A DNA stretch of 64,000 bases. Origin: Syntrophales bacterium. GTDB taxonomy: Bacteria; Desulfobacterota; Syntrophia; Syntrophales; UBA2210. The notes beneath the pieces are model-generated. The model saw nothing but the letters and a program-made list of their open reading frames with translations. It was not told where the DNA came from and ran no database searches. Shown piece after piece: positions 1 through 39,353 of this stretch. Numbering within the stretch: position 1 is the stretch's first letter; every line of letters begins with the position of its first letter. Position numbers and translations under genes: made by a program. Location of the stretch: the NCBI GenBank assembly GCA_963662405.2, contig CAXXKT010000001.1, forward strand, positions 1,216,001-1,280,000, given 5' to 3'.

Positions 1-1200
1 AATACACTTTTGCAGGGTTGCCGCATTCAGAACACCTTCCTGGCTGTCAGCGATGGTAAAGGGGTAGCTGGGATTATTCGGATCACCAATCACCTTGAAC
101 ATCGCCTGGGCCCTGGTCCGTCGATCCGCCAGTTCATTCACAAAGCGTTTCCCCGTCTTCTTGTCGATCATGATACCGAAACGGAAACCGGCCGCAATCT
201 GGTAAGAAGACCCCACACCAAAACCCTTTTCGTTAGGCGATGCCCAGGGACCTGACTGAATCCAGCTCAGGTGCACCGGTGCGGCACCGACCTTGAAGAG
301 GTTCTCCAACACTTCACCCGTGGCGCCTGGTTGATTGGTGCTGTCGAGCTGATTTGTCGGTTTTGCAAGACTGGGATCCTGAATCCCCCGGAAAAAGGGG
401 TCTTGGCTGAATCCGCCGCTTGCCACCACGACACCTTTTCTCGCCTTGTAGAACTTCCTATTTCCCGTCTTGTTGTGGCGATCACCGTCGGTGGCCTTGT
501 AATTGAACCTGTAATCTTCAAGCACCTCGACACCCAAAACGCGTCCGTTCGGTTTGGCGTTCGTGTCCTCGCGGACAAATCCGACAACCTTTGTCTTCTT
601 TTGCAGTTCTCCGTTCAGTTTTTCCAGGTAATAGGTGGTGAGGGGCCTGACGATGCCTGATCCGGAAGAAACCGTAGTCAAATAGGTCCGCGGTACCGAA
701 TGGCCGCCCAGGTGTTCGAGCTTGTCATTCCACTTCACGCCGCGCTCCGTCGTCCACTCCGGCAGATCACGTCCTTCCTTGGCGACAATCTCGATCAACG
801 CCACATGGTTGAGTCCCCGACCCGCCTTCAGGAGATCATGGACATAAAGATCCACCGAGTCCTTGACGCCTTCTTTCTCCTGCAGTTTTGAATTCACTGC
901 CGCCATAAGGCCGCCGTTGATGATGGAGTTGCCGCCGTTTACGGGCATCTTGTCCAGGATAATAACATTCTGCCCGGCTTCCTTGGCCGTGATCCCCGCG
1001 GCGAGTCCTGCGAACCCGCTGCCGATAACGATAATATCGAATTCCTTGTCCCACTTCGCTGGAATCGGCTGCGGCCTGGCATGGGCATCCCCTGCCAGAA
1101 GACTCAGGGCAAATCCGCCCACCGCAACGGCACCTCCCGTTGACTTAAGAAAGGTCCTCCGTGACACATCGTGTGTCGGCGTATTGTTTTTTTCTTTCAT
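1..1200 (-). CDS. Tat-exported flavocytochrome c flavin subunit, paralog 3 (partial, runs off the window start; not in the ORF track)
   Basis: Manual translation from the ATG at 1200 gives 400 codons with no stop: MKEKNNTPTHDVSRRTFLKS (twin-Arg), VIGSGFAGL (FAD), NSIINGG, HLGGHSVPR, STNQPGATGE, WIQSGPWASPNEKG, FVNELADR. Confidence 0.93.
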   Translation of the reverse strand, partial: MKEKNNTPTHDVSRRTFLKSTGGAVAVGGFALSLLAGDAHARPQPIPAKWDKEFDIIVIGSGFAGLAAGITAKEAGQNVIILDKMPVNGGNSIINGGLMAAVNSKLQEKEGVKDSVDLYVHDLLKAGRGLNHVALIEIVAKEGRDLPEWTTERGVKWNDKLEHLGGHSVPRTYLTTVSSGSGIVRPLTTYYLEKLNGELQKKTKVVGFVREDTNAKPNGRVLGVEVLEDYRFNYKATDGDRHNKTGNRKFYKARKGVVVASGGFSQDPFFRGIQDPSLAKPTNQLDSTNQPGATGEVLENLFKVGAAPVHLSWIQSGPWASPNEKGFGVGSSYQIAAGFRFGIMIDKKTGKRFVNELADRRTRAQAMFKVIGDPNNPSYPFTIADSQEGVLNAATLQKCI

Positions 1201-1901: not shown

Positions 1902-4271
1902 CTAGCAGAGGACCGACCAGAAGATGAGGACCGTCAGGAGGAGGCCGAGGAGGACCGAGGCGATGCCGATAACCGCCGCCACCAACTGGTCAAGAGGACC
2001 CGGCTGCGTTCGCTTCAGTGCCTCAAGGCGATCCTCGGCGATGATCCGTTCATATTCCTCAGGGCGCTCCTTCTTCAGTGCCGATACGCTGTACCGACCC
2101 GTGAAGATGTTCGACTCCATGGGGAACTTGTTCGGTACCAGGTGGTTGTGGAAGAAGTGGACCGTGAAGATAAAGATCGCCGCCAGGAACGCCTCCTCGG
2201 AATGGGCCACCGCGGCGACATTGATCATCCACCCCGGCATGATGTACGAAAACGTTTCAGGGAACCAGAGGACCAGTCCCGAGAGACCGATCACGAACAT
2301 CCCCCAGAAGACGGCGAAGAAGTCAAACTTCTCCCAGTAGGTCCAGCGTTCAAAGCGGGGCATCTCCCCCCGGTCGAAGAACCAGCGGAGCATCCCCTTC
2401 AGATCTGCCCAGTCCTTCAGGTTGAAGAAGAGGGACTCCGGGCCGAAGAGCCGACCCAGCCAGCCCTTTGTCTTGCCGCCGGGGAAGAGGAACCGCAGGC
2501 TCAGCCAGCAGGTGTAGAGGAAGAGCGCCCAGAGGATGATCGCCGCCGCGCGGTGCAGATGCCCCGCCATGGTCACGCCTCCCCAGAGGTTGATCAGGAA
2601 CTCGGCGATCGGTGTTTCGTGATACTTGAGCGGGAACCCCGTCATGACCAGCACGAAGAATGATGCCATCAACAGGAGGTGCATGATGCGGTCACGCCAT
2701 GGAAAACGCTGGACATAGACGTACGTATCCTCCGGAGATGCAGATTCTTCTTCCCCCGGGGTTTTCAGTCGCCACTTGTGCCAGTAGGCCTTTCGCCACC
2801 AGAGGATGGTGTGGACCCAGAAGAAGAGAAAGACGAAGAACAGGAGAGCAAGCATGAAGACGTTGGTCCAGAAGAGGGCCGGATAGCGGGCCCGATCGCT
2901 GTAATCGGGGTGTGCCACATACGCGATGAATCGATGGTGGAATTTTGAGTGGCACTGTTCGCAGTCCTTCACGAGTTCGCTCTCATGAATGGTCGACTGC
3001 GGATCGTCCGGGGGGAGGATGTTGTGGCCGTTATGACAGTCGCCACACCCCGCGATACGCATGGGGTCCCCTTCGAGTGATTCGCAGGCGAGCACCTTGC
3101 CGTGGAAGGTCTCTTCATACCCGGTGGTCACCGAGGGGTTCAGGTCGTTCCGCGCCGCCAGTTCCCTGTCCTCGTGGCAGGTCCTGCAGGCAATGGTGTA
3201 AGATTCGCGTTTCTGCGCCTGTCCCCGCGGGGTATCGGCGTAGGCGGGAATGCCGTGGAGGCCGTGACAGTCCGAACAGGCTGCCGCGTCCTCGTTCCCC
3301 TTCAGAACGGCGTTTCCATGGCCCCGGGAGACATAGGTTTTCTCTTCGTGGCACGCGGTACAGCGTTTGATGACGGCCGTTTTTGAAGACCCCTCGTGTT
3401 TTGTGCGGATGTGCACATCGGTATGGCAGTCCTGACAGGTGATCCTCTCACTCAGAAGATGGACATCAGTATCATACTGTGAAGCGATGTCCTTATGACA
3501 GATGGCGCAGGTGATCAGTCCCGGCTTCATTTCCTGTGCCGCATGAGCCGATATGTCGACGATTCCGGTATGACAGGTGGTGCAGTTCAAGATGCCGTGG
3601 ACCGAGGCAGCGAACTGGTCTCCGTATTCGGGCTGGCCGTGACAGTTCTGGCAGGCCTGTCCCGGCTCGACCGGTTTTTTCCCTTCCGCTCCTGCCGTTT
3701 GTGCGCCGACCGCGACCTTGTCGGGTTCGGCCATCGGCGAGGGGATGACGAACCCGAATTCATGGCACTGATTACAGAAGTTCTCGGACGGGGCATGGGC
3801 ATGGTGACAGACATCACAGTCCAGTTCCGGGCCGTAGTGCGAATTGTGCGGATTTGCCTCCTCGTGCCCTTCCGTCGCCGCCACTATCAGCTCGGTCGTA
3901 TGGCACGACAGACATTGATCGGCCCCCACGAACTCGGGTGGGTCGGCATCGCCGTGGCAGGCGGCGCAGGAGATACCGCCCAGGAGGTGGCTGTGACTCA
4001 GGGGGAGGGTATTGGTCAGCTGTGGGTCATCCTGTCCGTGACACCCCAGGCACTGTTTGAGGCCCATCCCCTTCGTATCCATATGGCTGTCCGGCAGCTT
4101 TGCATCGTCACCATGACAGGCGGCGCAGTCACCGCCTTGAGCCGTCGCGAGACGCTGCGGCTCGGCCGCCGATGCGGGGCTGCCACCGCACAATAAAAAA
4201 GCCAGAGATAAAACGGCTACACCTTTGACCGTTTCTCTTACCCATTTTTTCCAGATATGATGGTCCTTCAT
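1902..4271 (-). CDS. 15-heme cytochrome c fused to a membrane cytochrome b domain (flavocytochrome-type heme module plus CbcL-like quinol oxidoreductase)
   Basis: Signal peptide and 15 CxxCH motifs counted. The C-terminal hydrophobic helices carry His ligands (RIMHLLL, HLHRAA, AHSEEA, TVHFFH) and WTYWEKFDFFAVFWG. Confidence 0.9.
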   Translation of the reverse strand: MKDHHIWKKWVRETVKGVAVLSLAFLLCGGSPASAAEPQRLATAQGGDCAACHGDDAKLPDSHMDTKGMGLKQCLGCHGQDDPQLTNTLPLSHSHLLGGISCAACHGDADPPEFVGADQCLSCHTTELIVAATEGHEEANPHNSHYGPELDCDVCHHAHAPSENFCNQCHEFGFVIPSPMAEPDKVAVGAQTAGAEGKKPVEPGQACQNCHGQPEYGDQFAASVHGILNCTTCHTGIVDISAHAAQEMKPGLITCAICHKDIASQYDTDVHLLSERITCQDCHTDVHIRTKHEGSSKTAVIKRCTACHEEKTYVSRGHGNAVLKGNEDAAACSDCHGLHGIPAYADTPRGQAQKRESYTIACRTCHEDRELAARNDLNPSVTTGYEETFHGKVLACESLEGDPMRIAGCGDCHNGHNILPPDDPQSTIHESELVKDCEQCHSKFHHRFIAYVAHPDYSDRARYPALFWTNVFMLALLFFVFLFFWVHTILWWRKAYWHKWRLKTPGEEESASPEDTYVYVQRFPWRDRIMHLLLMASFFVLVMTGFPLKYHETPIAEFLINLWGGVTMAGHLHRAAAIILWALFLYTCWLSLRFLFPGGKTKGWLGRLFGPESLFFNLKDWADLKGMLRWFFDRGEMPRFERWTYWEKFDFFAVFWGMFVIGLSGLVLWFPETFSYIMPGWMINVAAVAHSEEAFLAAIFIFTVHFFHNHLVPNKFPMESNIFTGRYSVSALKKERPEEYERIIAEDRLEALKRTQPGPLDQLVAAVIGIASVLLGLLLTVLIFWSVLC

Positions 4272-4399: not shown

Positions 4400-5944
4400 C
4401 TACGCCGCTCCGACATTCTTTCCCGCGATCCGGCCGAAGACCAGGCAGTCTACCACCGCGCAGCTTCCCAGACGGACGGCGCCATGAACACCTCCCGCTA
4501 CCTCGCCTGCGGCATAGAGACCGGCGATCGGGTTGCCGTCCACATCGATGACCTGGGCCTTCTCGTTGATCTGCACCCCGCCCATGGTGTGATGTACCTT
4601 GGGCCAGAGGCGGATGGCATAGAAGGGGGCCGTTTCTATGGGCTTTGCGTCAGGCTGCATGTACCTGCCGAATTCCTTGTCTACCCCCGTCTTCAGATAG
4701 GAATTGTAGTCGTCGACGGTCTTTTTGACGGCCGCGTATGGGATCTTGTAGGTCGCTGCCAGGGCCTCAAAGGTATCGAATTTTTTGACGACGCCCCGTT
4801 CGAGGAGCTTCCCCAGCGCCCCGGGAGGCCCTCCGCACTTCGTGGAACCAAACTCATCAGAGATCCCGATTGCGGCATGGCCGGTCCTGATAATGGCATC
4901 GGCCCGGACCTTCCGGTTTGCGAGCTCACTGACGAATCGTTTTCCCGTCTCGGGGTCTACCATGACACCGTAGCTGAAAACCGGTCCCGTCGCGAAGTGG
5001 GGACCGAGACCGAACCCTTTTTCATCGGGGCTCGCCCAGGGACCGAGCTGGATCCAGGAAGGCTGCACGGGGTTCGCTCCGATCCTGAACAATTCCCTGA
5101 GTCCCTCGCCGGTGGCACCCGGCTGATTCGTGGAGTTGACTTTTGCAATCAGCTTGGGATCCTGTGTCATCCGATACGGGACGTCACGTGAGAATCCGCC
5201 GGTTGCGATGACAAGGCCTTTCGTGGTCTTGACGGTCTTGACCGTTCCGCTGTCTTTCGTCGGGAAACGGTAGTTCTCGCGTATCTGGATACCGGCGACC
5301 TTCCCGTTTCCGTCGGTGAAGATCTTCTCGAGATAGGTCTTGGTCATGATCTGAACGCCCAGTTCCTTGAGCTTTGCAAGTTCCTGCATAACGATGCCGG
5401 AACCGCTGTAGTTGGCGGTGGGGCAGCTGCGGGCGACGGTGTGCCCGCCCATATGGAGGAGCATTCCTCCGAATTTACATCCGAGATGTGCCTTACACCA
5501 CTCGTATGCGCTCTTTGATTGATACGCCACCATCTTCGCCAGATCCGGGTAATTCAGATAGAGTCCCGCCTTCATCATGTCTTCCAGCATCAGGTCGGGG
5601 GAATCCTTGATCCCTTTCGCCTCCTGCATGTCGGATCCGGCCACCGCCATGACGCCGCCGTTGATGATCGAATTTCCGCCGGCGACGCGCATCTTCTCAT
5701 ACACAACCACTGACGCGCCCGCCTCCTTTGCCTCGATCGCCGCTGCCAGGCCGGCGAAGCCGCTCCCAATAACGGCGACATCCACCGCGGAATCCCATTT
5801 CTTGGGGATATCGGCAGCGATCGCCTGCCGGGGTCCGGCAAACAACGTCCCGGCCGCAGCACCGGTCAGCGCCGCCCCTCCCGTGGCTTTCAGAAAATTT
5901 CGTCTCGTCAAGCCCTGATCTTTGGGTGCCTTCTTTTGTGCCAT
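4400..5944 (-). CDS. Tat-exported flavocytochrome c flavin subunit, paralog 2
   Basis: TRRNFLK Tat motif, GSGFAG, IQLGPW, VHHTMGG, GEVAGGVHGAVRLGS. Confidence 0.93.
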   Translation of the reverse strand: MAQKKAPKDQGLTRRNFLKATGGAALTGAAAGTLFAGPRQAIAADIPKKWDSAVDVAVIGSGFAGLAAAIEAKEAGASVVVYEKMRVAGGNSIINGGVMAVAGSDMQEAKGIKDSPDLMLEDMMKAGLYLNYPDLAKMVAYQSKSAYEWCKAHLGCKFGGMLLHMGGHTVARSCPTANYSGSGIVMQELAKLKELGVQIMTKTYLEKIFTDGNGKVAGIQIRENYRFPTKDSGTVKTVKTTKGLVIATGGFSRDVPYRMTQDPKLIAKVNSTNQPGATGEGLRELFRIGANPVQPSWIQLGPWASPDEKGFGLGPHFATGPVFSYGVMVDPETGKRFVSELANRKVRADAIIRTGHAAIGISDEFGSTKCGGPPGALGKLLERGVVKKFDTFEALAATYKIPYAAVKKTVDDYNSYLKTGVDKEFGRYMQPDAKPIETAPFYAIRLWPKVHHTMGGVQINEKAQVIDVDGNPIAGLYAAGEVAGGVHGAVRLGSCAVVDCLVFGRIAGKNVGAA

Positions 5945-6408: not shown

Positions 6409-7935
6409 TTACGCTCCGACCTGCTGCCCCGCGATCCTGCCGAAGACGATACAATCGAGGACGGCACAGCTCCCGAGACGGACCGCGCCATGGACACCTC
6501 CGGCAATTTCGCCCGCGGCATAGAGTCCCGGAATCGGCTCGCGATCCAGCCCGATGACCTGCGCCTTCGTATTGATCTGGATCCCGCCCATGGTATGATG
6601 GACCTTGGGCCAGGCTCGGCAGGCATAGAAAGGCGCCGTTGCAATCGGCTTCGAGTCGGTCTGCATGTACCGGTCGAACTCCTCGTCCTTCCCCTGTTTC
6701 AGATATTTGTTCCAGTTGTCGATCGTCTCCTTCAGCGGTCCGACGGGGATCTTGTACGCGGCCGCCAGATCATCGATGGTATCGAATTTCTTGGCAACAC
6801 CCTTTGCAAGAATCTTTTCGAGAATGGGGACCCGTTTGACTCCTTCGCTGTCTGCAATCGTTACGGCGGGGTGCCCCGTCCTGATAATCGCGTCGGCCCG
6901 GATCTTCCGGTTGGCAAGCTCATTGATGAAACGCTTTCCCGTTTTCGGGTCGACCATCACGCCGTAGATAAAACCGGCCATGGCATTGAAGACATACCCG
7001 ATTCCCATTCCCTTCTCGTCGGGGCTGGTCCAGGGACCAAGCTGTATCCAGGAGATCTGGACAGGCGTCGCGCCGATCTTCAAGGCCTCCATCAGCACCT
7101 CACCCGTCGCCCCCGGCTGATTGGTGGAATCAACATCCGCCGTCAGCTTCGGGTCCTGAAGTGTCCGGAAATAAAGATCCCTGCTGAAACCACCGGAGGC
7201 AAGTACCACGCCCTTCTTCGCCTTCAGGTATTTCTCCTTCCCTGATTTTTCGTCGGGGAACCGGTAGCCGTCCTTGATCTTGAGGCCGGCGACCCGCCCG
7301 CTCTTGTCCTGGATAATCGCCGTGACATAGGCCTTGTTTCTCACCTCGATTCCGAGACCTTTCACCTTCTCCAGCTGTTTGTTGACGATGGCGGACCCGC
7401 TTCCGTTCCATGTGGAATAGCTACGCGGTACCGAATGACCGCCGAGGTGGGTAACACGGTCTTTGTACTTGACACCGAGGGACTCCGTCCACTCCGCCGC
7501 CTCTCGTGATTTCTCGGCGATCATCCCGGCCAGATCGGGGTGATTCATATACAGCCCCGCCTTCATCATATCCTGAAGGAGCAGTTCCGGTGAATCCTTG
7601 ATTCCTTCCGCTTCCTGTTTCGGAGAACCGGCAACGGCGAAGACACCGCCGTTGATGATCGAGTTCCCGCCTGATACCCGCATCTTTTCGAGAATCAGGA
7701 CCGACGCACCTTTCTGCTTCGCCTCGATAGCCGCCGCCAGACCGGCGAAGCCGCTCCCGATGACCACCACATCAAACTCCTCATCCCACTTCTGCGGCAT
7801 ATCGGCGCCGAATGCCTTCCGGGGACCGGCAAACAATGTCCCGGCTGCAACACCAGCCAGCGCCACTTCTCCCGTTGTCTTGAGAAATCCTCTCCGTGTA
7901 AATTCGCCGTGTCTGTCTGTCGTGTCTTTTCCCAT
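6409..7935 (-). CDS. Tat-exported flavocytochrome c flavin subunit, paralog 1
   Basis: TRRGFLK Tat motif and the same FAD and active-site motifs. Start moved to ATG 7935, behind a GAGGAGG SD. Confidence 0.93.
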   Translation of the reverse strand: MGKDTTDRHGEFTRRGFLKTTGEVALAGVAAGTLFAGPRKAFGADMPQKWDEEFDVVVIGSGFAGLAAAIEAKQKGASVLILEKMRVSGGNSIINGGVFAVAGSPKQEAEGIKDSPELLLQDMMKAGLYMNHPDLAGMIAEKSREAAEWTESLGVKYKDRVTHLGGHSVPRSYSTWNGSGSAIVNKQLEKVKGLGIEVRNKAYVTAIIQDKSGRVAGLKIKDGYRFPDEKSGKEKYLKAKKGVVLASGGFSRDLYFRTLQDPKLTADVDSTNQPGATGEVLMEALKIGATPVQISWIQLGPWTSPDEKGMGIGYVFNAMAGFIYGVMVDPKTGKRFINELANRKIRADAIIRTGHPAVTIADSEGVKRVPILEKILAKGVAKKFDTIDDLAAAYKIPVGPLKETIDNWNKYLKQGKDEEFDRYMQTDSKPIATAPFYACRAWPKVHHTMGGIQINTKAQVIGLDREPIPGLYAAGEIAGGVHGAVRLGSCAVLDCIVFGRIAGQQVGA

Positions 7936-9653: not shown

Positions 9654-10562
9654 CTATTTGATCAGATTCTTGCTCTTCAGCCACTCCATGGCCACATCAT
9701 GGACCTGCCGGTGGTCCACATCCACGGCCTTATTCAACTGCTGCATCTCTTCGGTGGTCAGGTTGTCGGCAATCGGTTTCAATATGGTTTCGATCTCGGG
9801 ATACGTGTCAAGGACTCCCTTCCTGACGACGGGTACGGGATTGTACACGGGGAAGAAGTACTTGTCGTCTTCAAGATTGACAAAACCGAAGGCGGCGATC
9901 CTGCCATCGGTTGCGAAACCCATTGCGGAATTGACCAGCCCCTTCTGCAACGCCTGGTAGGTAAGACCGACCGACATCTTCTTGACCTGCCTGGCGGGCA
10001 GTTTAAAATGATAGGTTTTCATGATCCCTTTAAATCCGTCAGGGCGTTCCCAGAATTCCGAATCCAAGGCGAATATGAGCTTATCCGGATTTTTCGTGAC
10101 GTAGACGCCCAGATCGGAGATACTCTTGATCCCGAGTTTCTCCGCTTCCGTCTTCCGCATCATCAGGGTATAGGTGTTGTTGAACCGGACGGGATCGAGC
10201 CAGACAAGTCCCTTTTCAGCGTCGGCTGTTTTCACCCAGTCATACACCTTCTCGGGGACGGTCATGGTCTTTGTGTCCTTCTGCTTGTAATACAGGGTGT
10301 ATGCCGTCCCCGTATACTCATAATAGAGATCGACCTGGGCATTTTCCAGTGATTTCCTGGCGATTACCGATCCAACCCCCGTCTTCAGCGAGACGTTGAA
10401 CCCCTCCTGCCCGAGAAGGATGCCGGCAAGCTCCGGAAGCAGGAGCTGTTCCGTAAAGTTCTTGCCGCCAACGATAAGGTTTTTCTCCCCGCCGACGGCA
10501 GCGCCCGAAAGTGAGAATATGGTAACAATAACCAGACAGACAGTATATTTCAATATCCGCAT
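9654..10562 (-). CDS. Glycine betaine/choline/carnitine-family ABC transporter substrate-binding protein (OpuCC/OsmF-like)
   Basis: GGKNFTEQ, YYEYTGT, NNTY and FFPVY motifs with a signal peptide. AGGAGG SD precedes ATG 10562. Confidence 0.9.
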   Translation of the reverse strand: MRILKYTVCLVIVTIFSLSGAAVGGEKNLIVGGKNFTEQLLLPELAGILLGQEGFNVSLKTGVGSVIARKSLENAQVDLYYEYTGTAYTLYYKQKDTKTMTVPEKVYDWVKTADAEKGLVWLDPVRFNNTYTLMMRKTEAEKLGIKSISDLGVYVTKNPDKLIFALDSEFWERPDGFKGIMKTYHFKLPARQVKKMSVGLTYQALQKGLVNSAMGFATDGRIAAFGFVNLEDDKYFFPVYNPVPVVRKGVLDTYPEIETILKPIADNLTTEEMQQLNKAVDVDHRQVHDVAMEWLKSKNLIK

Positions 10563-10617
10563 AATACTACCTCCTTTTTTGACTCTCGGTGCACCGCGGA
10601 GCACCGTGTGTGATGGT

Positions 10618-11349
10618 TCAATCCGAAAGACGGAGCCCTTTCGAAACCAGAAGCAGCCCCATAAGCTCAGAGAGAAAATCCGCAAAAAGTGCCAGCAGCG
10701 TTACCGGAATAGCGCCGGCCAGCAGCTTGTCCGTTTGCATAAGGCTGATTCCCGTAAATATCAGATCTCCCAGGCCTCCGGCCCCGATGACATAAGCGAG
10801 CGCGGCGGTCCCGATATTGATTATCAGGGCCACCCTGAATCCCGTGAGAATCACCGTCATGGCATTCGGTATCTCCACCTCCATCAGAATCCTGATGGGA
10901 GGCATTCCCATGCCTTTCCCGGCGTCGATCAGCTCCGGGGGTACCGCTGTAATCCCGGCAAGGGTATTGCGTGCGATGGGGAGGATGGAATAGATAGTCA
11001 GGGCAAAGATGGCCGGCTTTGTGCCGATACCCAGGAAACTCATTGCCAACGCGAGAACGGCAAGGGAGGGGATGGTTTGTCCCAGTCCGATAGTATACAT
11101 GCATATACCGGCATATCTGCGCAACCGTTTTCTGGTCAGTAAAATACCCGCCGTTACTCCTATGACCGTGGCGATGCTCATACTGACCGTTACTATGTAC
11201 AGATGCTGGACGAACAATTCCATGATAACGGGATATTCGTATGGGTCGGAGAGTAACTCTATAAGCCCGGTCCGTTCGGCAACCACGCCCACGGCAAGAA
11301 TCACAATCGCCAGTATGACCCGATACAATTTTATCAGTAGTCTTATCAT
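10618..11349 (-). CDS. Osmoprotectant ABC transporter permease
   Basis: QTIPSLA, EAA-like loop DAGKGMGM and GAGGLG. Confidence 0.9.
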   Translation of the reverse strand: MIRLLIKLYRVILAIVILAVGVVAERTGLIELLSDPYEYPVIMELFVQHLYIVTVSMSIATVIGVTAGILLTRKRLRRYAGICMYTIGLGQTIPSLAVLALAMSFLGIGTKPAIFALTIYSILPIARNTLAGITAVPPELIDAGKGMGMPPIRILMEVEIPNAMTVILTGFRVALIINIGTAALAYVIGAGGLGDLIFTGISLMQTDKLLAGAIPVTLLALFADFLSELMGLLLVSKGLRLSD

Positions 11350-12014
11350 CGCGCGAGTTTCCTCTGTACCTTGATGCCTTCGGGCGTCGCGAGCCGTTCC
11401 AGCAGGGCCATTCCACCGTCAACGATTATGGCGAGGAGGGAAACCAGTATGGCACCGCTCAGTATCATCTCCGGATACACGCGGGCAATACCCTGCTGGA
11501 TGTATACACCCAGCCCTCCCGCCCCGATATAGGTGGCGATAGCGGCAATGCCGATATTCATGACGGCGGCCGTCCTCAACCCCGCAATGATGACGGGGGT
11601 GGCCAGCGGGATTTCCAATTCTCTCAGGAGTTTCCATTTGCCCATCCCCATACCTCTGCCCGCGTCCACCAGGGAAGGAGGAACATTCTGGATGGCCGTA
11701 TAGGTGTTCCTGATGATAGGGAGCTGACTGTACAGAACCAGGGCTATCACGGCAGGGACCTTGCCCAACCCCATATTGACTATCGCAAGGGCAGGGAGCA
11801 TCAGCCCGAAGAGGGCAATGGAGGGTATCGTCATGAGGATGTTGGCGCCGTTCAAGACCCGGGACGCGAGCTGCTCGCGTTTCGTAATGACGATGCCCAG
11901 AATCACGCCGATGGGTGTGGCTATAAGGAGTGCTACCCCCACAATCCATATATGCTCCCAGGAGAGGTACAGAACCTCGCCAAAGTTATCAGCCATAAAT
12001 CGCAGCGTGCTCAT
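11346..12014 (-). CDS. Osmoprotectant ABC transporter permease
   Basis: TIPSIALFG, DAGRGMGM and IGAGGLG; 4-bp overlaps with both neighbours. Confidence 0.9.
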   Translation of the reverse strand: MSTLRFMADNFGEVLYLSWEHIWIVGVALLIATPIGVILGIVITKREQLASRVLNGANILMTIPSIALFGLMLPALAIVNMGLGKVPAVIALVLYSQLPIIRNTYTAIQNVPPSLVDAGRGMGMGKWKLLRELEIPLATPVIIAGLRTAAVMNIGIAAIATYIGAGGLGVYIQQGIARVYPEMILSGAILVSLLAIIVDGGMALLERLATPEGIKVQRKLAR

Positions 12015-13159
12015 CCCGAGGCCCCATTTTCACCGGCTTCCGCCTCATCGGCGTAACTCTCCCTGACCACCTTCTGTATATCGTTGTACGTGACTGTCCC
12101 CGCAAATCGACCATTCTCGTCCAGGGCGCAGAAGGTGACCTCATCGTGCATCAACATGAAGGAGAGGACATCACGCAGCGAGGTCCTCTCCTTGAGAAAG
12201 AGGGGGTAGTGTTCCACCAGATCCCGCACCGGCCCGTTTTCATACTTGAGGATCTTTGGTGTGACATGCCCGATAGGGCGGTCGTTCTCGATCACGATAC
12301 CGTAACGGAATCCCTTCTCGTCGAGAAAGTGCAGGGCATCCGGGGCATTGTCCCCTCCGCGTATAATATTCTTCGGTCTCCGGTTGATCACGTCGGAAAC
12401 CTGCATGAGCCCGAGGACCTTCAGCGCCCGATCGGCACCGACGAAGTCGGCGACGAACTTGTTTTTGGGCTGTGTCAGGATCACCTCCGGTGTCTCGTAC
12501 TGTATCAGGCGTCCCCGGTCGAAGAGGGCGATACGGTCTCCCATCTTGATCGCCTCGTGGATGTCGTGCGAGACGAAGGCGATCGTCTTCTTCAGTTTTG
12601 CCTGGAGCTTGAGGAATTCGTTCTGGATCTGCTCCCGGTTGATGGGGTCGATGGCACCAAAGGGTTCGTCCATAAGCAGTATGTCGGGGTCCGCGGCAAG
12701 CCCCCGAGCTACCCCCACCCTCTGTTGCTGGCCGCCGGAGAGTTCGGCGGGGTAACGGTCCCTGTACAGCGCAGGTTCCAGGTTAGTCATTTGAAGCAGG
12801 TCATCAATTCGCTGACTGATACGTCCTTTATCCCACCCCAGGAGTTTGGGAACAACGGCGATGTTATCGGCGATGGTTTTATTCGGGAAGAGACCGATGG
12901 CCTGGATGACATACCCCAGCCGCTGCCTGAGTTCCACCACATCCAGGTCCATGATATTCTGATTGTCGATGGTGATGTTTCCCCGCGTGAGGGTCTCCAG
13001 GCGGTTGGTCAGGCGCAGCGTCGTGGTCTTGCCGCACCCCGAGGGTCCGAGAAAAACGACGATTTCTCCCTGTGGTATGGTGAAACTGACATTGTCGAGG
13101 GCCGTGACGGCGTCCCTCCCCGTACCGAATATCTTGGTGACAGATTCGTAGGTAATCAT
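12011..13159 (-). CDS. Osmoprotectant ABC transporter ATPase with C-terminal CBS domains
   Basis: Walker A GPSGCGKT, LSGGQQQR and MDEPFGA. Confidence 0.92.
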   Translation of the reverse strand: MITYESVTKIFGTGRDAVTALDNVSFTIPQGEIVVFLGPSGCGKTTTLRLTNRLETLTRGNITIDNQNIMDLDVVELRQRLGYVIQAIGLFPNKTIADNIAVVPKLLGWDKGRISQRIDDLLQMTNLEPALYRDRYPAELSGGQQQRVGVARGLAADPDILLMDEPFGAIDPINREQIQNEFLKLQAKLKKTIAFVSHDIHEAIKMGDRIALFDRGRLIQYETPEVILTQPKNKFVADFVGADRALKVLGLMQVSDVINRRPKNIIRGGDNAPDALHFLDEKGFRYGIVIENDRPIGHVTPKILKYENGPVRDLVEHYPLFLKERTSLRDVLSFMLMHDEVTFCALDENGRFAGTVTYNDIQKVVRESYADEAEAGENGASG

Positions 13160-23534: not shown

Positions 23535-24392
23535 CTATTCGTTTATATAGGGCACCTCATCCCACCACGGATAAAAGTCCGGCATGTCCCGGCCCGGTTT
23601 CATCGAAAAGGCCGGGGGACGTTTTGCGAGGAAAGCTTTCACCCCTTCCTCCGTATCGGGTGATGACAGCATATACCCGAAGGCCTTCGATTCGATGATG
23701 TGGGTGTTCATGGGGTGCCGTTCACACAGCATCTTCCAGATCATCTGCCGGGCCAGGGCGGTGGATACGGCGGAGGTGTTGTCCGCGATCTCACGCGCGA
23801 TCCGGGTGGCCGTCGGGATCAGTTCTTCCGGGGCGGTCACCCGGCTGAAGAGCCCCAGTTCCAGCCCTTCCCGGGCGTCGAAGAGGCGACCCGTGAGGAT
23901 CAGCTCCGCCGCCGTGCTGACGCCGAGAATCCGCGGGAGAAAGTAGGTACAGCACCCCTCGGGGACGACCCCCCTCCGGTCAAAGACAAACCCGATTTTT
24001 TTGGCGCCCTCGGAGGCGATTCGGATGTCCATGGCCATGGTCATGGTAATCCCGACGCCGACGGCGTTCCCGTTGATCGCCCCGATGACGGGCTTTTTCA
24101 TATTGAAGAGACGCATGGTGACCTGCCCCGCCGAGTCGCGGAAGGGTTTGTTCCCCTCGGGATCGTCGGGATTTTGAAATCCTCCGGCGGCCAGATCCGC
24201 TCCAGCGCAGTACGCCCGCCCGGCCCCGGTGAAGATCACTACCCGGACCGCGTCGTCACGGTCGGCCTCATCCAGCGCCTGCAGGATCTCCTGCATCATG
24301 ACGGGTGTCCAGGCGTTGAGTACCTCCGGTCGGTTGAGTGTAATAGTGGCGATGCGGTCCGCCACGGCATAGGCTATCTGTTCGTACTTCAT
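23535..24392 (-). CDS. Enoyl-CoA hydratase/isomerase (crotonase)
   Basis: LNRPEVLNA, CAGADL, AINGNAVGVG and PEG. GGAGG SD precedes ATG 24392. Confidence 0.9.
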   Translation of the reverse strand: MKYEQIAYAVADRIATITLNRPEVLNAWTPVMMQEILQALDEADRDDAVRVVIFTGAGRAYCAGADLAAGGFQNPDDPEGNKPFRDSAGQVTMRLFNMKKPVIGAINGNAVGVGITMTMAMDIRIASEGAKKIGFVFDRRGVVPEGCCTYFLPRILGVSTAAELILTGRLFDAREGLELGLFSRVTAPEELIPTATRIAREIADNTSAVSTALARQMIWKMLCERHPMNTHIIESKAFGYMLSSPDTEEGVKAFLAKRPPAFSMKPGRDMPDFYPWWDEVPYINE

Positions 24393-24429
24393 GAAATTAT
24401 TCCTCCAAAGCGATATATGGGGATGTCCT

Positions 24430-24446
24430 AGCAGGTTCCGGGCCAA
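24430..24446 (-). promoter_or_regulatory. sigma54 promoter
   Basis: Minus strand TTGGCCCGGAACCTGCT (GG-N10-GC), about 40 nt before the crotonase ATG. Confidence 0.6.
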
Positions 24447-24646
24447 ATGGCAATTCCTTTCAGGAGACCCGGAGGGGGGGCGGAAACGAGGGACAGGACT
24501 TCATGGAAGGGCACATCTCACGGGAAGCAGGGACAGGGAGAGGAGATGCCAAGATCTCCTCCGTCGGGCGGTGCGGCCTTCTCGATACACATATGATCCC
24601 GCATCGCGGGATCGCTGATAATAGCTGAAAAACTCGAGAGATTTCT

Positions 24647-25342
24647 TCAATGCCGCAGGGATGTGATCGTCTGATCTATAATCTCCCTAATCTCCCGGGG
24701 GGTCTCTTGCTTCATCCTGCCGATGAGCCCCGCGTTTTTGTTCAGCGACCGGGCGAAGGCAACGGCCTCGTTCATCAGGTCTTCGGGGGGACAGGCCTTC
24801 TTGATGATGTGGTGTTCCTCGCACTCCTGTGCGGTGAGTCTTCTTCCGGTATACTGCATCTCCTCGAATTTGTACTGGGGGACCGCCCGCCGCGCGATAG
24901 CCGAGAGGACCGGCCCCAGGGTCATATTGATATCCACTTCGGGGAGACAGATCCACCCCTTGTCCGCGCGCATGAACCGGAAATCGAGGGCGAATGCCAG
25001 AAAAGCCCCGCCGGCAAAGGCGTGACCGTTGATGGCTGCGATGGTCGGCATGGGAAAGGTGAGGACACGTTCCAGGAAGCGGTACATCGCGGTGAGAAAT
25101 CGATCCATCATCTCCGGTCCCTCCTCTTCGACGGCGGGAAGGAACCAGTCCAGGTCGATGCCGTTGGACCAGATTTTTGTATCCGCGGAATTGACAACGA
25201 GGGCATTCGCTTCAGTTGCGTGTTCGATCTCGTCGAGGGCACCCAAGAACGTTTCCATAAATGGAAAGTTAAATCGATTTTCACCACCGTTCATCGTTAC
25301 CACGGCAACCCGCTCGTTCAGTTTATATACAACTTTCGACAT
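24647..25342 (-). CDS. Enoyl-CoA delta-isomerase-like crotonase
   Basis: WSNGIDL, AAINGHAFAGG and CLPEVDI. Confidence 0.85.
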   Translation of the reverse strand: MSKVVYKLNERVAVVTMNGGENRFNFPFMETFLGALDEIEHATEANALVVNSADTKIWSNGIDLDWFLPAVEEEGPEMMDRFLTAMYRFLERVLTFPMPTIAAINGHAFAGGAFLAFALDFRFMRADKGWICLPEVDINMTLGPVLSAIARRAVPQYKFEEMQYTGRRLTAQECEEHHIIKKACPPEDLMNEAVAFARSLNKNAGLIGRMKQETPREIREIIDQTITSLRH

Positions 25343-25404
25343 TGTCGATTCCTTTCTCCTGATATCCCGTCTCAGTTTCTTGTGGCACAGAACGACAAAC
25401 GGCG

Positions 25405-26223
25405 TCAGATGTCGTGCAGCTTCTCCGGCGCCAGATCTTCCCTCACGTCGGTGACGCCGGGCACTGCCCTGACGGCATCCAGGAGATCATCCTTCGATTC
25501 CAGGGGGTTGATGAGTCCGGTGAGGATTATGACCCCGGTTTCGGGGACATCGACGTGGATAGTCTTTGCGCTGAGACTTGTCTTTTTGACCGCCGTTGTG
25601 GCCATCTTTTTGAGGCTGTATCGTTCCATGGTCTCCAGGGCCTTGAGGCTGCAGGTGTTGATGATTTCGGACCGGGCAACGGAGAGAATGAGATCGGCGG
25701 CGGCATCGTTCCCCAGCTTGTCCTTGTTGACGATCAGATCGTAGAGCCCCGGGCTGTCCCAGTCCATATCGAAGGAATAACTCATGAACCCTCTCTTGCT
25801 GCTGTCGTCGGCACGGATGATCTTCAGGGCGGCCTCGTGACTGATTCCCTGCGAAGATCGCAGAGCCTCAATGCGGGTTTCCTTCGACGAGTGGATACGG
25901 ACATGGAGGGCACAGCCGAAGTCACGCAGGAGAAATTGAGCGCCGTGTCCAATGATCACTCCCTCTCCCCGGCGTGAGATTTCGTACACGACCGCCTCGA
26001 GAAGCTCGAGGTATGACTGGGGTCTGAACTCAAGGACACGGCTGAAAAACCCCGGCGCCTTTTCGTCAAGACTCCCCAGTTCTTTTGGAGAGAGGCCCAT
26101 AGCGATGGATTCCTCCCTGATTTTTTCATCGTTATACAGCGGCACTGACACCCCGTCAGCCACGCGCCGGGCGATCTCGGGTCCGCCGCACCCAATCCCT
26201 GCTGTGATCGTAATCAATGCCAT
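25405..26223 (-). CDS. Cytidylate kinase-like protein with C-terminal BON domain
   Basis: ITITAGIGCGGPEIA, GVIIGHGAQF and YDLIVN, with a BON-like tail (VILTG..VPGVTDV). Confidence 0.75.
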   Translation of the reverse strand: MALITITAGIGCGGPEIARRVADGVSVPLYNDEKIREESIAMGLSPKELGSLDEKAPGFFSRVLEFRPQSYLELLEAVVYEISRRGEGVIIGHGAQFLLRDFGCALHVRIHSSKETRIEALRSSQGISHEAALKIIRADDSSKRGFMSYSFDMDWDSPGLYDLIVNKDKLGNDAAADLILSVARSEIINTCSLKALETMERYSLKKMATTAVKKTSLSAKTIHVDVPETGVIILTGLINPLESKDDLLDAVRAVPGVTDVREDLAPEKLHDI

Positions 26224-26323
26224 GACGATATCTCCTTTTCTGATGAAGGCCGGCGGTTTCCCGGTTCGAACGGTCTGGAGAGAGGTGCCGGCGATGTTCG
26301 CCCTCGGCGATGGTGAATTACCC

Positions 26324-28117
26324 TTACCCGTAAAGCATATATACAAGAATCACCGCTATGACAAGATAGATGATCGTTAGTACGCCCCCGACACGGATGA
26401 AATCACGGGTCCTGTAACCGCCGGGGGAGATGAGCAGGGCGTTGACCTGGTGTGTGGGGAGGAGGAAGGCGTTGGATGCGCAAACAGCCACCAGGAGCGC
26501 CAGACCACGGGGGTTGATGCCGACCAGATCGGCCATCACCATCGCCAGGGGGACCAGAAGAATCGTGGTGGCCACGTTCGATATGACGAGAGAAAAAAAA
26601 GTGGCGAGGAGTCCAACAACGAACAGTATCATAAGGGGGTGTCCCTCCAGGACCTGCATGATCTGGATGGCTGCGTATCGGGCCGCTCCGGTACGGTCCA
26701 CGGCGATACCGAGGGGGATGAGCCCCGCCAGGAGAAAGACCGTTCGCCAGTCCACGGCGCGATAGGCCTCGTCGATCGGGATGATCCGCAGAATGATCAT
26801 GGCCGCGGCCCCCGTCAGGAGACCGAGGGCGATCGGGAATCCCGAAAGGGTGAGCAGAATTGCCCCGGCCAGACAGGCGAGGGCAATGATCGGTCGAGGC
26901 CGCGGTGCCGTCTCCGTTGCCTCGACGGGGGTAATGAGGACGAAGTTGCTGTTGTCGGCCATTGATCGTATTTGCTGCCACCGCCCGTGGACGATCAGGG
27001 CGGTTCCCGCCTTGAGGGGCTCGTCCGAAAAATTTTCCCGTTCCTCGCGTTCACCGCTGAGGAGCATAATCGGCTCCACGCCATAGGTCTTGCGGAGGGT
27101 TATCTCACGGAGTGTCTTCCCGATGAGAGGCGCCCTGACGGGGATGACCAGTTCGGCAAAACCGGCGTGTCCGGCCGTCTCCAGATCCTCGAAGGGTTTC
27201 GCATCTTCCCGGTACATCAGGTCATAATCGGTGACGAACCGGGTCAGGTCGTTTCGATTGCCCAGGAGGGCCAGCCGCTGCCCCGCTGCAAAGGGTGTGT
27301 GCCGCCAAGGGGCATAGAGGACGTCATCCCCTTCGGCCAGGGCGAGGAGGTTCAGCCGATACTTCGCCCGGAGTCGGACATCTCCCCTGGTTCTGCCCAC
27401 GAGGGGACTCTTTGCCGGGACGATGCAGTGATAAATGGTTGTGGGAAGGTGCCATCGCTCGATCAGTCTGAGCTGCATGCTGACCGGTTTTTGTATTCGC
27501 TCCCTCGTGCCGGGGAGGAGGCGGTGGCCGGAGAAAAGAAAATAGATCACCCCGGCGGCCAGGAGGGAGATCCCCACGGGGGTGACACTGAAAAGACCGA
27601 AGGGGTGGTATCCCCCCTGCCGCAACAGATCGTTCAGGATGAGGAGAGGGGTTGATCCGACCATGCTCAGATTACCCCCCAGGATGACCGCAAACCCCAT
27701 GGGCATCAGGAGACGTGATGCGGGTATCCCCGTGCTCTTGGATATCCGGAGCATGGCCGGCAAAAAGAGGGCGGCGGCACCGATGTTCTGCATGAAGGCG
27801 GAGATGAGACCTACCGTGATGGTAACGAGACCGATCAGCCGTTTCTCGTCGCCCCGGGCGGCAGCGGCGATAGGCTGGACGAGACGGGTGATGGCACCGG
27901 AACGGTCCACACCGTAGCCCAGGATCATGACGGCGATCACCGCAACGACGGCGTTGCTGGCAAGCCCCGAAAAGGCCTCCTCCGGTTCTACCAGTCCCAG
28001 CCAGGGGAGGCTGACCATCACCAGGATCGCCACGATATCAACTCGCAGGACATCGGTGATGAAGAGAATCACCGTCACGCCGAAGATCAGAAAAACAAGG
28101 GCCATCTGAAACGTCAT
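26324..28117 (-). CDS. SLC13/DASS-family di/tricarboxylate permease with TrkA-C domains
   Basis: SAFMQN and ISNVAT motifs, central RCK-C repeats and PGGYR. Confidence 0.87.
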   Translation of the reverse strand: MTFQMALVFLIFGVTVILFITDVLRVDIVAILVMVSLPWLGLVEPEEAFSGLASNAVVAVIAVMILGYGVDRSGAITRLVQPIAAAARGDEKRLIGLVTITVGLISAFMQNIGAAALFLPAMLRISKSTGIPASRLLMPMGFAVILGGNLSMVGSTPLLILNDLLRQGGYHPFGLFSVTPVGISLLAAGVIYFLFSGHRLLPGTRERIQKPVSMQLRLIERWHLPTTIYHCIVPAKSPLVGRTRGDVRLRAKYRLNLLALAEGDDVLYAPWRHTPFAAGQRLALLGNRNDLTRFVTDYDLMYREDAKPFEDLETAGHAGFAELVIPVRAPLIGKTLREITLRKTYGVEPIMLLSGEREERENFSDEPLKAGTALIVHGRWQQIRSMADNSNFVLITPVEATETAPRPRPIIALACLAGAILLTLSGFPIALGLLTGAAAMIILRIIPIDEAYRAVDWRTVFLLAGLIPLGIAVDRTGAARYAAIQIMQVLEGHPLMILFVVGLLATFFSLVISNVATTILLVPLAMVMADLVGINPRGLALLVAVCASNAFLLPTHQVNALLISPGGYRTRDFIRVGGVLTIIYLVIAVILVYMLYG

Positions 28118-28157
28118 GGCTTGCCTCCTTATAAGAGCGGCGGTGCGGCCGTTTTCC

Positions 28158-29936
28158 TTAAAAGGGCCACAGAACCGGCGCCAGAAGGACCGTGGTAACC
28201 CAGAAGATGATATTCAGGGGCAGACCGATACGGGCGAAATCGGAAAAGCGATACCCCCCCGGCGCATACACCATCGTATTCGTCTGATAGCCGATCGGGG
28301 TCGCGAAGCTCGTTGACGCGGCAAAGGTAATCGCCATTAAAAACGGGCGAACGGATATCCCCATCAACTCAGCGACCGAGAAGGCGATCGGCACCAAGAG
28401 AATGGCCGCGGCGTTGTTCGACATCATCGCGGTCAGAACGGCGGTGATGAAATAGAGGCAGGTCAGGACGACGAACGGGCCCATCGCGATCAATGGGTTC
28501 ATAATCGTGTTCGCGAGCCATGCGGCGGTTCCCGTCTGCTCGAGGGCGAGTCCCAGGGGGATAATTCCCCCCAACAGGAAAATCACCTTCCAGTCGATTG
28601 CCTTGTAAGCCTCTTCAATGGTGATGCAGCGGCCGAGGACCATGGCGACGGCGCCGGTCAGGGCGGCCACGAGGAGGGGAAGGACATTGAAGGCGACAAG
28701 GAGGATCATGGAGATAAAGATTGCCAGTGCCGTGAAGGCGCGATCCTTGCGAAGGTGAAGCTGTGTCAGCTCGTTGGTGACGATGAGATCACTGGTCTGG
28801 AGAATGCGGCGCACCGAATCCCTGTCGCACTGCAGGAGGAGGGTGTCTCCGTCGTCGAAATTGATATCGGCGAGTCGCTCCCGGAGGATCTTCCCCCGTC
28901 TTTGGATGGCGAGGACCACGCAGCCGTAGCGCTCTATGTACTCGGCACCGCGCAGGGTCCGCCCGATCAGCCGTGACCGCGGCGGTACCAGCGCCTCGAT
29001 CAACTCGATCTTGTCCGATTCCAGCTCGGTATCTTTGATGACCGCATCCGCTTTTGTCTCGAGACGGTAGTTGCCTTTCATCTTGATCAGCGCTTCCGCG
29101 TTGCCGTGGAGGAGGAGAAAATCATCCTCCCTGATCTTGGTGGCCGATGCCCGCCAGGTCGCCTTGCCGTCCCGGATGATCTTTATGAGATCGATTTCGT
29201 TCAGGTCCTTCTTCTCGATCTCGCGCCACCGCTTACCCGCCAACGAGGATTCGGCGGTTACCCGCATCTCGGAAAAGTAGTCTGCGAGGCGGTACTTGTC
29301 GACCTGTTCTTCCTCACCCTCCCGTTTCGGGATCAGGATCCGTGATGCAAAGGTCAGATAGAGAATGCCGATGACGGCCAGGATAATTCCCATAGGCGCG
29401 AATTCAAAGAGAGAAAAGGGCTTCAGGCCCCCGGCGACGGCCATCGAATTGACCAGGACGTTGGTGGAGGTCCCGATCAGTGTGCAGACGCCCCCGAACT
29501 GGCTCGCGAAGGACAGGGGGATCAGGACGCGTGACGGGGCGACGTTGCGTGTTTTCGCGAGGATGACCGCCACGGGGATCAGGATTGCGACGGTCGCCGT
29601 GTTGACCATGAAGGCCGAAAGGGTGGCCGCAAGGAGGCAGAGGACGCAGATCAGTCGCCGTTGCCCCTTTCCGGCAAACCGGTCGAGGTGGCGGGCCAGC
29701 CACTCGACGAGACCGGTCCGGACCAGTCCCGCACTCAAGACGAACATAGCGGCGACGATGGCCGTGGCGGTGTTCGCGAACCCGTACAGGGCCTGGTCGG
29801 GCCTGATGAGATGCAGGAGGAGGATCGCTACCAGGACGGACAGCGCGGTCACATCAACCCGGAGCGTTTCGGTGATGAAGAGAACGGTGGCGGCAACGAC
29901 GATGACCAGGAGCAATACGGTGTCTATGGGAATCAT
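28158..29936 (-). CDS. SLC13/DASS-family permease with TrkA-C domains
   Basis: SAFMVNT, TLIGTSTN, MSNNAAA and TPIGYQTN. Confidence 0.9.
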   Translation of the reverse strand: MIPIDTVLLLVIVVAATVLFITETLRVDVTALSVLVAILLLHLIRPDQALYGFANTATAIVAAMFVLSAGLVRTGLVEWLARHLDRFAGKGQRRLICVLCLLAATLSAFMVNTATVAILIPVAVILAKTRNVAPSRVLIPLSFASQFGGVCTLIGTSTNVLVNSMAVAGGLKPFSLFEFAPMGIILAVIGILYLTFASRILIPKREGEEEQVDKYRLADYFSEMRVTAESSLAGKRWREIEKKDLNEIDLIKIIRDGKATWRASATKIREDDFLLLHGNAEALIKMKGNYRLETKADAVIKDTELESDKIELIEALVPPRSRLIGRTLRGAEYIERYGCVVLAIQRRGKILRERLADINFDDGDTLLLQCDRDSVRRILQTSDLIVTNELTQLHLRKDRAFTALAIFISMILLVAFNVLPLLVAALTGAVAMVLGRCITIEEAYKAIDWKVIFLLGGIIPLGLALEQTGTAAWLANTIMNPLIAMGPFVVLTCLYFITAVLTAMMSNNAAAILLVPIAFSVAELMGISVRPFLMAITFAASTSFATPIGYQTNTMVYAPGGYRFSDFARIGLPLNIIFWVTTVLLAPVLWPF

Positions 29937-29985
29937 ATAATACGTCCTCTATCAGGAGTCAAAATACGATTACTGCATGATTTTC

Positions 29986-30014
29986 ATTATAATGTCCTGA
30001 CGGGTGGCGGTCAA
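29986..30014 (-). promoter_or_regulatory. sigma70 promoter for the SLC13 genes
   Basis: Minus strand TTGACC-N17-TATAAT. Confidence 0.7.
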
Positions 30015-30065
30015 CGGGAAATGCGGGGGGCGGAGGATGCGACAGAAAGGAGCGGGGTGTGGATA

Positions 30066-31541: not shown

Positions 31542-31620
31542 GGCTCACTCTCCGGTCCTGTGGAGATCTATACCACAGATGAATTAAAGGGTACAACGGT
31601 TCCGCCGTCTGTCGATACCC

Positions 31621-33141: not shown

Positions 33142-33309
33142 TCTCTACCTTTCTCATCGTTCTGTTGTCTCGCAATGCATGAGCGTCTGATCATGTCAAA
33201 AAGAGCAGCCCGAGCCCCTTCTCGCCTGGCTGCCCAGTGCAAAAAATTCCAACTTTATAAAGGATCTCGGAACGGTTTGTCAATCCAATTTCTGTTTTCA
33301 TTTTTTTTC

Positions 33310-33355
33310 TTGACATTGGAGGCCATCTTGCTTAAAAAAGTGTGACCCTTGGTCA
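33310..33355 (+). promoter_or_regulatory. sigma70 promoter with an adjacent palindrome (candidate TetR operator)
   Basis: TTGACA-N17-TAAAAA followed by TGACC-ctt-GGTCA at 33343-33355. Confidence 0.5.
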
Positions 33356-33439
33356 TAATCTGACCTTTATCCGCCTCTTTTTACTGTTACAGGATTTAAG
33401 CTGTTGACTTTCAAATACTTTTGAGAAGGAAATTGCGGA

Positions 33440-35903: not shown

Positions 35904-36038
35904 ATATCGGTAAGAGGGTATGACCGAAAGGGCACCTGAGGGACCGGGTGCGCTTCCGGCCATAATGGAATGCGGATCAATGAGGGGGGGACCTCATCGT
36001 CTTCTCTCTGCTTCAAAAACTGTGCGGAGGTTGTTACA

Positions 36039-39348: not shown

Positions 39349-39353
39349 GTTCA

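Follow-up and report, generated by a model that had tools for sequence, protein, structure and literature searches.

We analysed a stretch of 64,000 nucleotides from a Syntrophales bacterium (assembly GCA_963662405.2, contig CAXXKT010000001.1, positions 1,216,001 to 1,280,000 of the forward strand), hereafter the window, in which a minus-strand gene at 1902-4271 encodes a 15-heme cytochrome. The gene is a real and intact fusion. Its product combines a hexaheme module resembling Mcc, the cytochrome of the Mrd/Mcc system of Geobacter sulfurreducens AM-1, with a CbcL-type membrane cytochrome, and it probably acts as a tethered electron donor from quinol to enoate reductases. Since the same module is elsewhere encoded right behind flavin enzymes, the fused protein is likely to pass electrons of the quinone pool to the three flavoproteins, FP1 to FP3, that flank it.

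The open reading frame of 789 amino acids contains exactly 15 CxxCH motifs, at residues 49, 74, 102, 120, 152, 166, 207, 230, 255, 279, 304, 332, 362, 409 and 437. This is not a chance accumulation, since only four open reading frames of the 3.8-Mb, 100%-complete genome carry at least two such motifs. The hydropathy profile exhibited a signal-peptide-like stretch at residues 17-36 and six C-terminal hydrophobic segments. Motif count and hydropathy bear out the layout read in an earlier note on this DNA, namely six N-terminal hemes, nine further hemes and a cytochrome b with several transmembrane helices. The gene and its parts are the following.

1902..4271, minus strand: fusion gene for a 15-heme cytochrome c and di-heme cytochrome b, 789 amino acids, with known full-length homologs.
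4167..4271, minus strand: predicted Sec signal peptide, residues 1-35, from hydropathy (hydrophobic stretch 17-36 ending in ASAA).
3996..4166, minus strand: N-terminal diheme unit, hemes 1-2 of the hexaheme, with an invariant CxxCH pair, His63 and His93.
3738..3995, minus strand: flavocytochrome-c3-type tetraheme, hemes 3-6, the predicted flavoprotein docking unit (PF14537; heme domains of PDB 1qjd and 1d4d).
3654..3737, minus strand: variable, likely flexible linker, residues 179-206 (spacing variation and low model confidence).
2907..3653, minus strand: CbcL-type nonaheme periplasmic domain, hemes 7-15 (CbcL spacing, nine invariant distal His).
1905..2906, minus strand: six-helix membrane domain, an FdnI/HydC-like di-heme cytochrome b (His531, 573, 690 and 705; also His487).

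The hexaheme module corresponds to residues 36-178 (two plus four hemes) and the CbcL-like part to residues 207-789. The CxxCH pair, His63 and His93 of the diheme unit are invariant in both stand-alone and fused copies, and the unit is retained by derived forms that do not have the tetraheme. The tetraheme has a PF14537 (Pfam) match at residues 95-171, and its closest sequences in the PDB belong to the heme domains of Shewanella flavocytochrome c3 (Fcc3), with E 2e-9 for the single sequence and E 9e-14 when a profile over the four hemes was used; the identification of the last four of the six hemes as an Fcc3-type tetraheme, already made in the earlier note, is thus confirmed. In an alignment with stand-alone genes the tetraheme ends in F-x-F-x-x-P at the very point where stand-alone hexahemes terminate, which agrees with the note's remark that the module closes like a separate subunit. 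The note had taken the fused portion to be a flavocytochrome heme module; the fusion is real, and it comprises the whole hexaheme and not just its tetraheme. The heme-free model of the module (mean predicted local distance difference test, pLDDT, of 68, with the second half below 51) was too poor for its lack of Foldseek and VIA-align matches to carry weight.

For the CbcL-like part, an alignment of 66 proteins showed invariant distal His residues in the nonaheme at positions 225, 243, 271, 287, 318, 339, 390, 416 and 454, as well as invariant His487, 531, 573, 690 and 705 in the membrane domain. This latter domain has a weak TIGR01583 match, and the top Foldseek match of its model is FdnI of formate dehydrogenase N (1kqf_C, E 1.5e-3, prob 1.00). 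The nine-heme domain alone gave a single weak match against the PDB, 28pb_A (E 5e-7).

Between the two halves, the stretch that separates hemes 6 and 7 ranges from 31 to 78 residues across 31 fused proteins, and the model has a pLDDT below 50 at residues 160-204, i.e. in the linker region. The variable spacing together with the low-confidence linker indicates that the join is more likely a tether than a rigid connection, and the term 'hard-wired' used in the earlier note was too strong. In Fcc3, the flavin adenine dinucleotide (FAD) lies closest to the last of the four tetraheme hemes. As the last tetraheme heme adjoins the linker here, electrons are unlikely to travel through the heme chain simply in sequence order.

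We considered whether the long frame could result from misassembly or read-through, with the locus actually producing two proteins, the second one from an internal start at Met180 (nt 3734). The module does terminate exactly like stand-alone hexahemes, with this Met two residues further. However, the same Fcc-type module is fused to the same C-terminal part in 33 of the best 120 protein matches, which argues against an assembly or gene-calling artefact, and the fused frame is present in 17 distinct loci, so that independent genomes already largely refute this explanation; we regard it as barely credible. The internal start was rejected, as Met180 is not preceded by a Shine-Dalgarno-like sequence, while GGAG precedes the ATG at 4271, and there is no second signal peptide.

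The 143-residue module was matched in 90 of 301 genomes of the order (E <= 1e-6), mostly as short stand-alone genes. Among the best 150 profile matches from 1.8 billion representatives, 131 were at most 300 residues long, mainly with six, four or seven hemes, and two carried a fused nonaheme. Gene neighbourhoods were counted at loci chosen by similarity to the 15-heme protein, after dropping identical sequences and loci with less than 1 kb upstream (six stand-alone, one fused and one nine-heme); the nine-heme controls were 40 places that we picked and those found inside other loci. Since kin are not independent, the counts are descriptive only. A flavoprotein gene lies directly upstream, on the same strand, in 67 of the 75 stand-alone hexaheme loci (19 of 20 in one subset, with L058 as the exception), which sustains the earlier link between the module and heme-less flavoproteins of the twin-arginine (Tat) type. 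With the fused genes, a flavoprotein is directly upstream in 10 of 16 under a strict 600-bp rule, and the number rises to 12 when 3 kb are allowed. The corresponding numbers for nine-heme relatives are 0 and 3 out of 43, and 41 of these 43 have a rhodanese-like gene directly upstream. In the family of the window genome, a TIGR01813 match at E <= 1e-60 was found in 6/6 fusion-bearing genomes vs 6/32 others, kin again not being independent. The earlier note had proposed a search for genomes with the two parts as separate genes, and such genomes exist: in several of them (L045, L048, L050 and L053) both unfused halves even lie in one cluster, in the order flavoprotein, hexaheme, decaheme, octaheme, rhodanese, nine-heme, resB, ccsA. 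Judging from these neighbourhoods, the hexaheme is a common stand-alone, Mcc-like partner of flavoproteins that has been fused whole here.

A heptaheme relative of the module (2+1+4 hemes; L037:13912-14631 and relatives) was also observed with a different flavoprotein type beside a 19-heme fusion, and has 292 homologs at E <= 1e-15.

The three flavoproteins next to the 15-heme gene are as follows.

6409..7935, minus strand: FP1, Tat-type heme-less flavoprotein, over the TIGR01813 cut-off, with a ribosome-binding site.
4400..5944, minus strand: FP2, Tat-type heme-less flavoprotein of the flavocytochrome c kind, over the TIGR01813 cut-off, with an RRNFLK motif and active-site motifs.
1..1200, minus strand: FP3, Tat-type flavoprotein running off the left edge of the window, over the TIGR01813 cut-off (locus L031).

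They form a same-strand series with the cytochrome, in the order FP1 (7935-6409, likely start 7935 in a frame open from 7950), FP2 (5944-4400, 128 bp upstream of the 15-heme gene), cytochrome and FP3 (from 1200), followed outside the window by resB and ccsA of cytochrome c maturation system II. A promoter and terminator scan of the cluster stayed near the shuffle background, so that co-transcription is not demonstrated. FP1-FP3 all carry twin-arginine motifs and no CxxCH, and no other gene of the genome exceeds the TIGR01813 cut-off; a fourth match, elsewhere, is weaker and does not have the catalytic motifs. Queries of the genome with the module and with a heptaheme and a tetraheme partner taken from relatives matched only the 15-heme gene, giving neither another Fcc-type heme partner nor a separate soluble copy of the cytochrome. 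Full-length NapC/CymA was not found in the genome, where the only PF03264 (NapC/NirT) signal was a weak and partial one within another cytochrome.

Compared with Fcc3 and urocanate reductase (UrdA), FP1 has kept the proton donor Arg348, His452 of the HHTMGG motif and the carboxylate-binding Arg491. Gly305 replaces the His that binds the second carboxylate of fumarate, and an aromatic residue, at about Phe321, stands near the Thr position, in a gapped stretch of the alignment. FP2 and FP3 share this active-site pattern and differ in their specificity loops. According to the available parts of the reports, Gly and Tyr, a pattern like that of FP1-FP3, occupy the second-carboxylate sites in the acrylate reductase ArdA of Shewanella woodyi (bioRxiv 10.1101/2024.02.11.579808), and Trp and Val in Mrd (PMC4427408). 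Sequence is a poor predictor of substrate in this flavoprotein superfamily. The active-site residues make fumarate unlikely, and a fumarate reductase function was rejected for FP1-FP3, as the residues for its second carboxylate are replaced in all three. Their predicted substrate is likely a monocarboxylic enoate of the acrylate, methacrylate, crotonate or cinnamate kind. A complex prediction with FP1 residues 48-513, the hexaheme alignment and FAD gave a score of 0.11 and a mark of 0.32, which speaks neither for nor against docking.

Among the best 120 protein matches, 33 contain the Fcc-type module and 70 have just the nine hemes; the named homologs belong to Syntrophales, Syntrophaceae and Syntrophus. 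The heme variants comprise 2+4(Fcc)+9, 2+4(Fcc)+4+9 (19 hemes) and forms with the diheme and no Fcc tetraheme. A maximum-likelihood tree of the C-terminal part was made with 42 of 110 rows, which we chose so as to represent the clades. In it the 20 extended proteins make up a single clade (SH-aLRT 99) that sits within the nine-heme proteins, and a FastTree of all 110 rows placed the tetraheme-less forms inside the 19-heme clade. The module tree put all fused copies in one group (support 94) together with six stand-alone genes; this is a quick tree of 140 columns that cannot by itself count fusion events, and its row L071, labelled fused, is a six-heme frame cut by the contig end. One ancestral fusion that was later remodelled is the simplest reading of these trees, and by the same comparisons the fusion is the inherited property of a Syntrophales-centred clade and not unique to the genome of the window. 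A 15-heme fusion also occurs outside Syntrophales, in records titled Pelobacter sp. and Bacteriovoracaceae (L066, L074), by either horizontal transfer or mis-binning.

Several results weigh against the proposed donor function. No flavoprotein lies within 3 kb at 4 of the 16 fused loci (L041, L074, L086 and L133), although three of these four genomes have TIGR01813 genes elsewhere. The remaining one, G164, which is 96% complete and carries a 19-heme form, gave no TIGR01813 match at E <= 1e-40 and presents only PF00890 frames of 572-621 residues. The earlier note had named homologs without flavoproteins as evidence that would speak against it, and such homologs exist in part. The 110-row FastTree left two fused subclades in a polytomy. 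At the closest fused loci, L032 and L033, where the membrane part is 82% and 77% identical, the flavoproteins are only 39% identical to FP1, are of a different active-site type and do not have the Fcc-type catalytic residues, so that the substrate class is not fixed. Finally, menaquinone ring-synthesis genes were not found in the 100%-complete genome: PF02621 is missing, TIGR00423, a family linked to MqnC, gave only weak matches, and MenB and MenD remained below cut-off. In the five fusion-bearing relatives searched, for PF02621 only (G103, G172, G206, G219 and G059), this family is missing as well.

The divergent flavoproteins beside the closest fusions point to a wire that accepts interchangeable enzymes, and suggest that the fused cytochrome serves several flavoproteins rather than one fixed partner. 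The neighbouring flavoproteins of the earlier note do flank the gene, and there are three of them, the third running off the left edge; they are apparently exchangeable partners. Tat flavoproteins without Fcc-type His/Arg residues were observed beside the fusion at L032:7693-9204, L033:7219-8817, L035:6405-7913 and L043:886-2646, some of them with Tyr at the position of the carboxylate-binding Arg.

Concerning the quinone, MenG is over cut-off in the genome and MenA-like proteins are below it. The presence of two formate dehydrogenases and a [NiFe] hydrogenase, with cytochrome b subunits, implies a quinone pool, which is likely fed by naphthoate salvage or an unrecognised synthesis route. In FdnI the quinol site is on the cytoplasmic side. 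If the site is placed in the same way here, outward transfer would consume proton-motive force instead of generating it, which would make the system more an electron sink than an energy-conserving loop.

In a different explanation, the protein would be an ordinary CbcL-type quinol oxidase whose added hemes relay or store electrons in the periplasm in a general way, and the flavoprotein genes nearby would be left over from the capture of the module. G164 has retained its 19-heme fusion with no TIGR01813 gene found, and heme number varies freely in the CbcL family, from 3 to 23 in the part of Zhong and Shi (2018) available (PMC6295460). Several derived forms have dropped the tetraheme; in L034 the hexaheme is duplicated, giving 21 hemes. 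In L042 and L175, however, loss of the tetraheme coincides with a separate tetraheme gene next door, the flavoprotein is adjacent in 7/7 fused loci with the closest modules (L031-L035, L043 and L066) even where its type has changed, and the three Tat flavoproteins of the window genome have no other Fcc-type heme partner among the queried genes. We therefore consider a general relay unlikely. In L034 the 21-heme form (L034:7996-11013) is a tandem duplication of the whole hexaheme, lying behind two flavoproteins.

For a donor of quinol electrons to flavoproteins, we propose the following course. The di-heme cytochrome b would oxidise quinol and, by analogy with CbcL, electrons would move through nine bis-His hemes. 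They would then be handed over across the flexible linker to the hexaheme, with a probable entry at the N-terminal diheme. The tetraheme would dock a Tat-exported flavoprotein and thereby recreate, between two separate proteins, the heme-FAD arrangement found within the single chain of Fcc3, as flavocytochrome c3 and Mrd/Mcc suggest, and the flavoprotein would reduce an enoate and not fumarate, to judge from its active-site residues. This arrangement probably had a single origin, when a nine-heme CbcL, usually found among rhodanese and multiheme genes, was taken up by an operon of flavoprotein and hexaheme, and one wire would now serve several interchangeable flavoproteins. A broader proposal, which we hold tentatively and find somewhat doubtful, treats the fusion as a Rosetta stone: CbcL-type cytochromes, familiar from the reduction of metals and electrodes, would be the missing quinol oxidase of Mrd/Mcc-type enoate reductases, and Syntrophales would swap flavoproteins so as to dump electrons on unsaturated acids without a methanogen, possibly with salvaged quinone.

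Electrons could also flow in the opposite direction, the flavoproteins being periplasmic dehydrogenases of an organic substrate and the fusion a quinone reductase, like FdnI for formate dehydrogenase. The FdnI-like membrane domain fits this direction, some neighbouring flavoproteins of relatives do not have reductase residues, and the CbcL/MtrH/MtoC family has been inferred to be bidirectional in the available text of PMC6295460. Still, FP1-FP3 retain the three catalytic residues of Fcc3/Mrd-type reductases, the characterised two-subunit relatives, Mrd/Mcc and ArdAB, are described as reductases, and CbcL itself as an outward electron donor, and we find the reverse direction quite unlikely.

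Other genes were observed around the cluster and in the rest of the genome. Close upstream, at window 9654-13159, lies a glycine betaine/osmoprotectant-type ATP-binding cassette transporter with an OpuAC binding protein, two permease-like genes and an ATPase with CBS. A dense beta-oxidation region at window 23535-40526 contains enoyl-coenzyme A (CoA) hydratases, three acyl-CoA dehydrogenases, a thiolase, a CoA transferase, an acyl-CoA ligase-like gene and two CitMHS/TrkA-C transporters. Outside the window, an unfused nine-heme CbcL-like paralog is found at G000:C1:1083963-1088163, behind a heptaheme and a rhodanese-like gene, and a gene at G000:C1:1553095-1555302 encodes a protein of 735 residues in which an N-terminal CxxCH and a membrane region are combined with an octaheme domain at the C-terminus; one stretch of it presumably resembles a cytochrome b5-type domain.

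If the proposed function is true, syntroph-type bacteria would have an unrecognised route to reduce small unsaturated acids, and a periplasmic enoate-reducing chain would give syntrophic degraders of fatty acids and aromatics a partner-free electron sink, which is relevant to the cultivation of syntrophs and to digester carbon flow. Tests are feasible, since one 19-heme member (P0016) is named from the cultured species Syntrophus gentianae.

Among known systems, the protein is a member of the CbcL/MtrH/MtoC family by every feature compared. The spacings of its last nine hemes (23,25,24,25,28,30,47,28) parallel those of CbcL of G. sulfurreducens, GSU0274 (23,25,23,24,29,28,43,28), and both have six helices at matching offsets, GSU0274 being compared by motif and helix positions; the CbcL architecture ascribed to this part in the earlier note is thereby supported. 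They also share nine conserved distal His, presumably with bis-His ligation, and an FdnI-like di-heme b domain. Unlike CbcL, the protein has at its N-terminus an additional hexaheme that stems from a flavocytochrome and is attached through a linker of variable length, and it is encoded among Tat flavoproteins. In the parts of the reports available, the CbcL periplasmic domain is bis-His ligated, has a potential of about -194 mV and reduces PpcA (PMC9129911, PMC13591261), a soluble triheme cytochrome that is its tested partner in extracellular electron transfer (PMC9129911). With only four multiheme frames, the present genome does not suggest a Geobacter-like outward network, and the fusion would extend CbcL-type proteins beyond extracellular electron transfer.

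Forms with 19 hemes were tabulated in 2018 without recognition of the Fcc-type module. Table S2 of Zhong and Shi contains two 925-residue Syntrophus proteins with 19 hemes, whose first six hemes, at 50, 75, 103, 121, 154 and 168, have the spacing of the module; no 15-heme row was noticed in it, and the main text available never mentions 'flavo' (PMC6295460). The literature searched, mostly without subscription papers, gave no description of a CbcL-flavocytochrome fusion. The earlier view that the architecture is uncharacterised thus holds for that literature, with the qualification that 19-heme members had been listed. On the present reading, some of the extra hemes of this 3-23-heme family, so far unexplained, would acquire a function.

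Shewanella Fcc3/FccA (PDB 1qjd, 1d4d) is the best PDB sequence match for both the tetraheme and the flavoproteins. For Fcc3 a tetraheme-FAD edge distance of 0.47 nm is listed. Fcc3, which is fed by CymA, has tetraheme and flavin domain in one chain, whereas here the tetraheme is fused to the quinol side; FP1-FP3 are heme-less and have replaced the His and the Thr/Glu/Arg that hold the second carboxylate of fumarate.

The closest functional parallels are Mrd/Mcc and ArdAB of S. woodyi, as described in the portions of the reports available. These systems share with the present one a heme-less Tat flavoprotein, a Sec-exported multiheme cytochrome with an Fcc3-type tetraheme, and the order flavoprotein then cytochrome, an operon type reported by Arkhipova et al. 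(2015; PMC4427408). The catalytic Arg/His/Arg are kept, and the second-carboxylate His and Thr are replaced, in all of them; at the His site ArdA has Gly as here, while Mrd, compared like Mcc by description, has Trp. Mcc (seven CxxCH) and ArdB (four) are free periplasmic proteins, whereas the six hemes described here are fused to a membrane module that would interact with quinol. With its cytochrome partner fused, the system is not a canonical member of the Mrd/Mcc-like enoate reductases. The available text on Mrd/Mcc describes the carrier between menaquinone and Mcc as unknown and counts a 67.6-kDa membrane cytochrome c as one of the candidates (PMC4427408); a protein in which an Mcc-like module is naturally joined to a CbcL-like one provides a direct and testable prediction for this gap.

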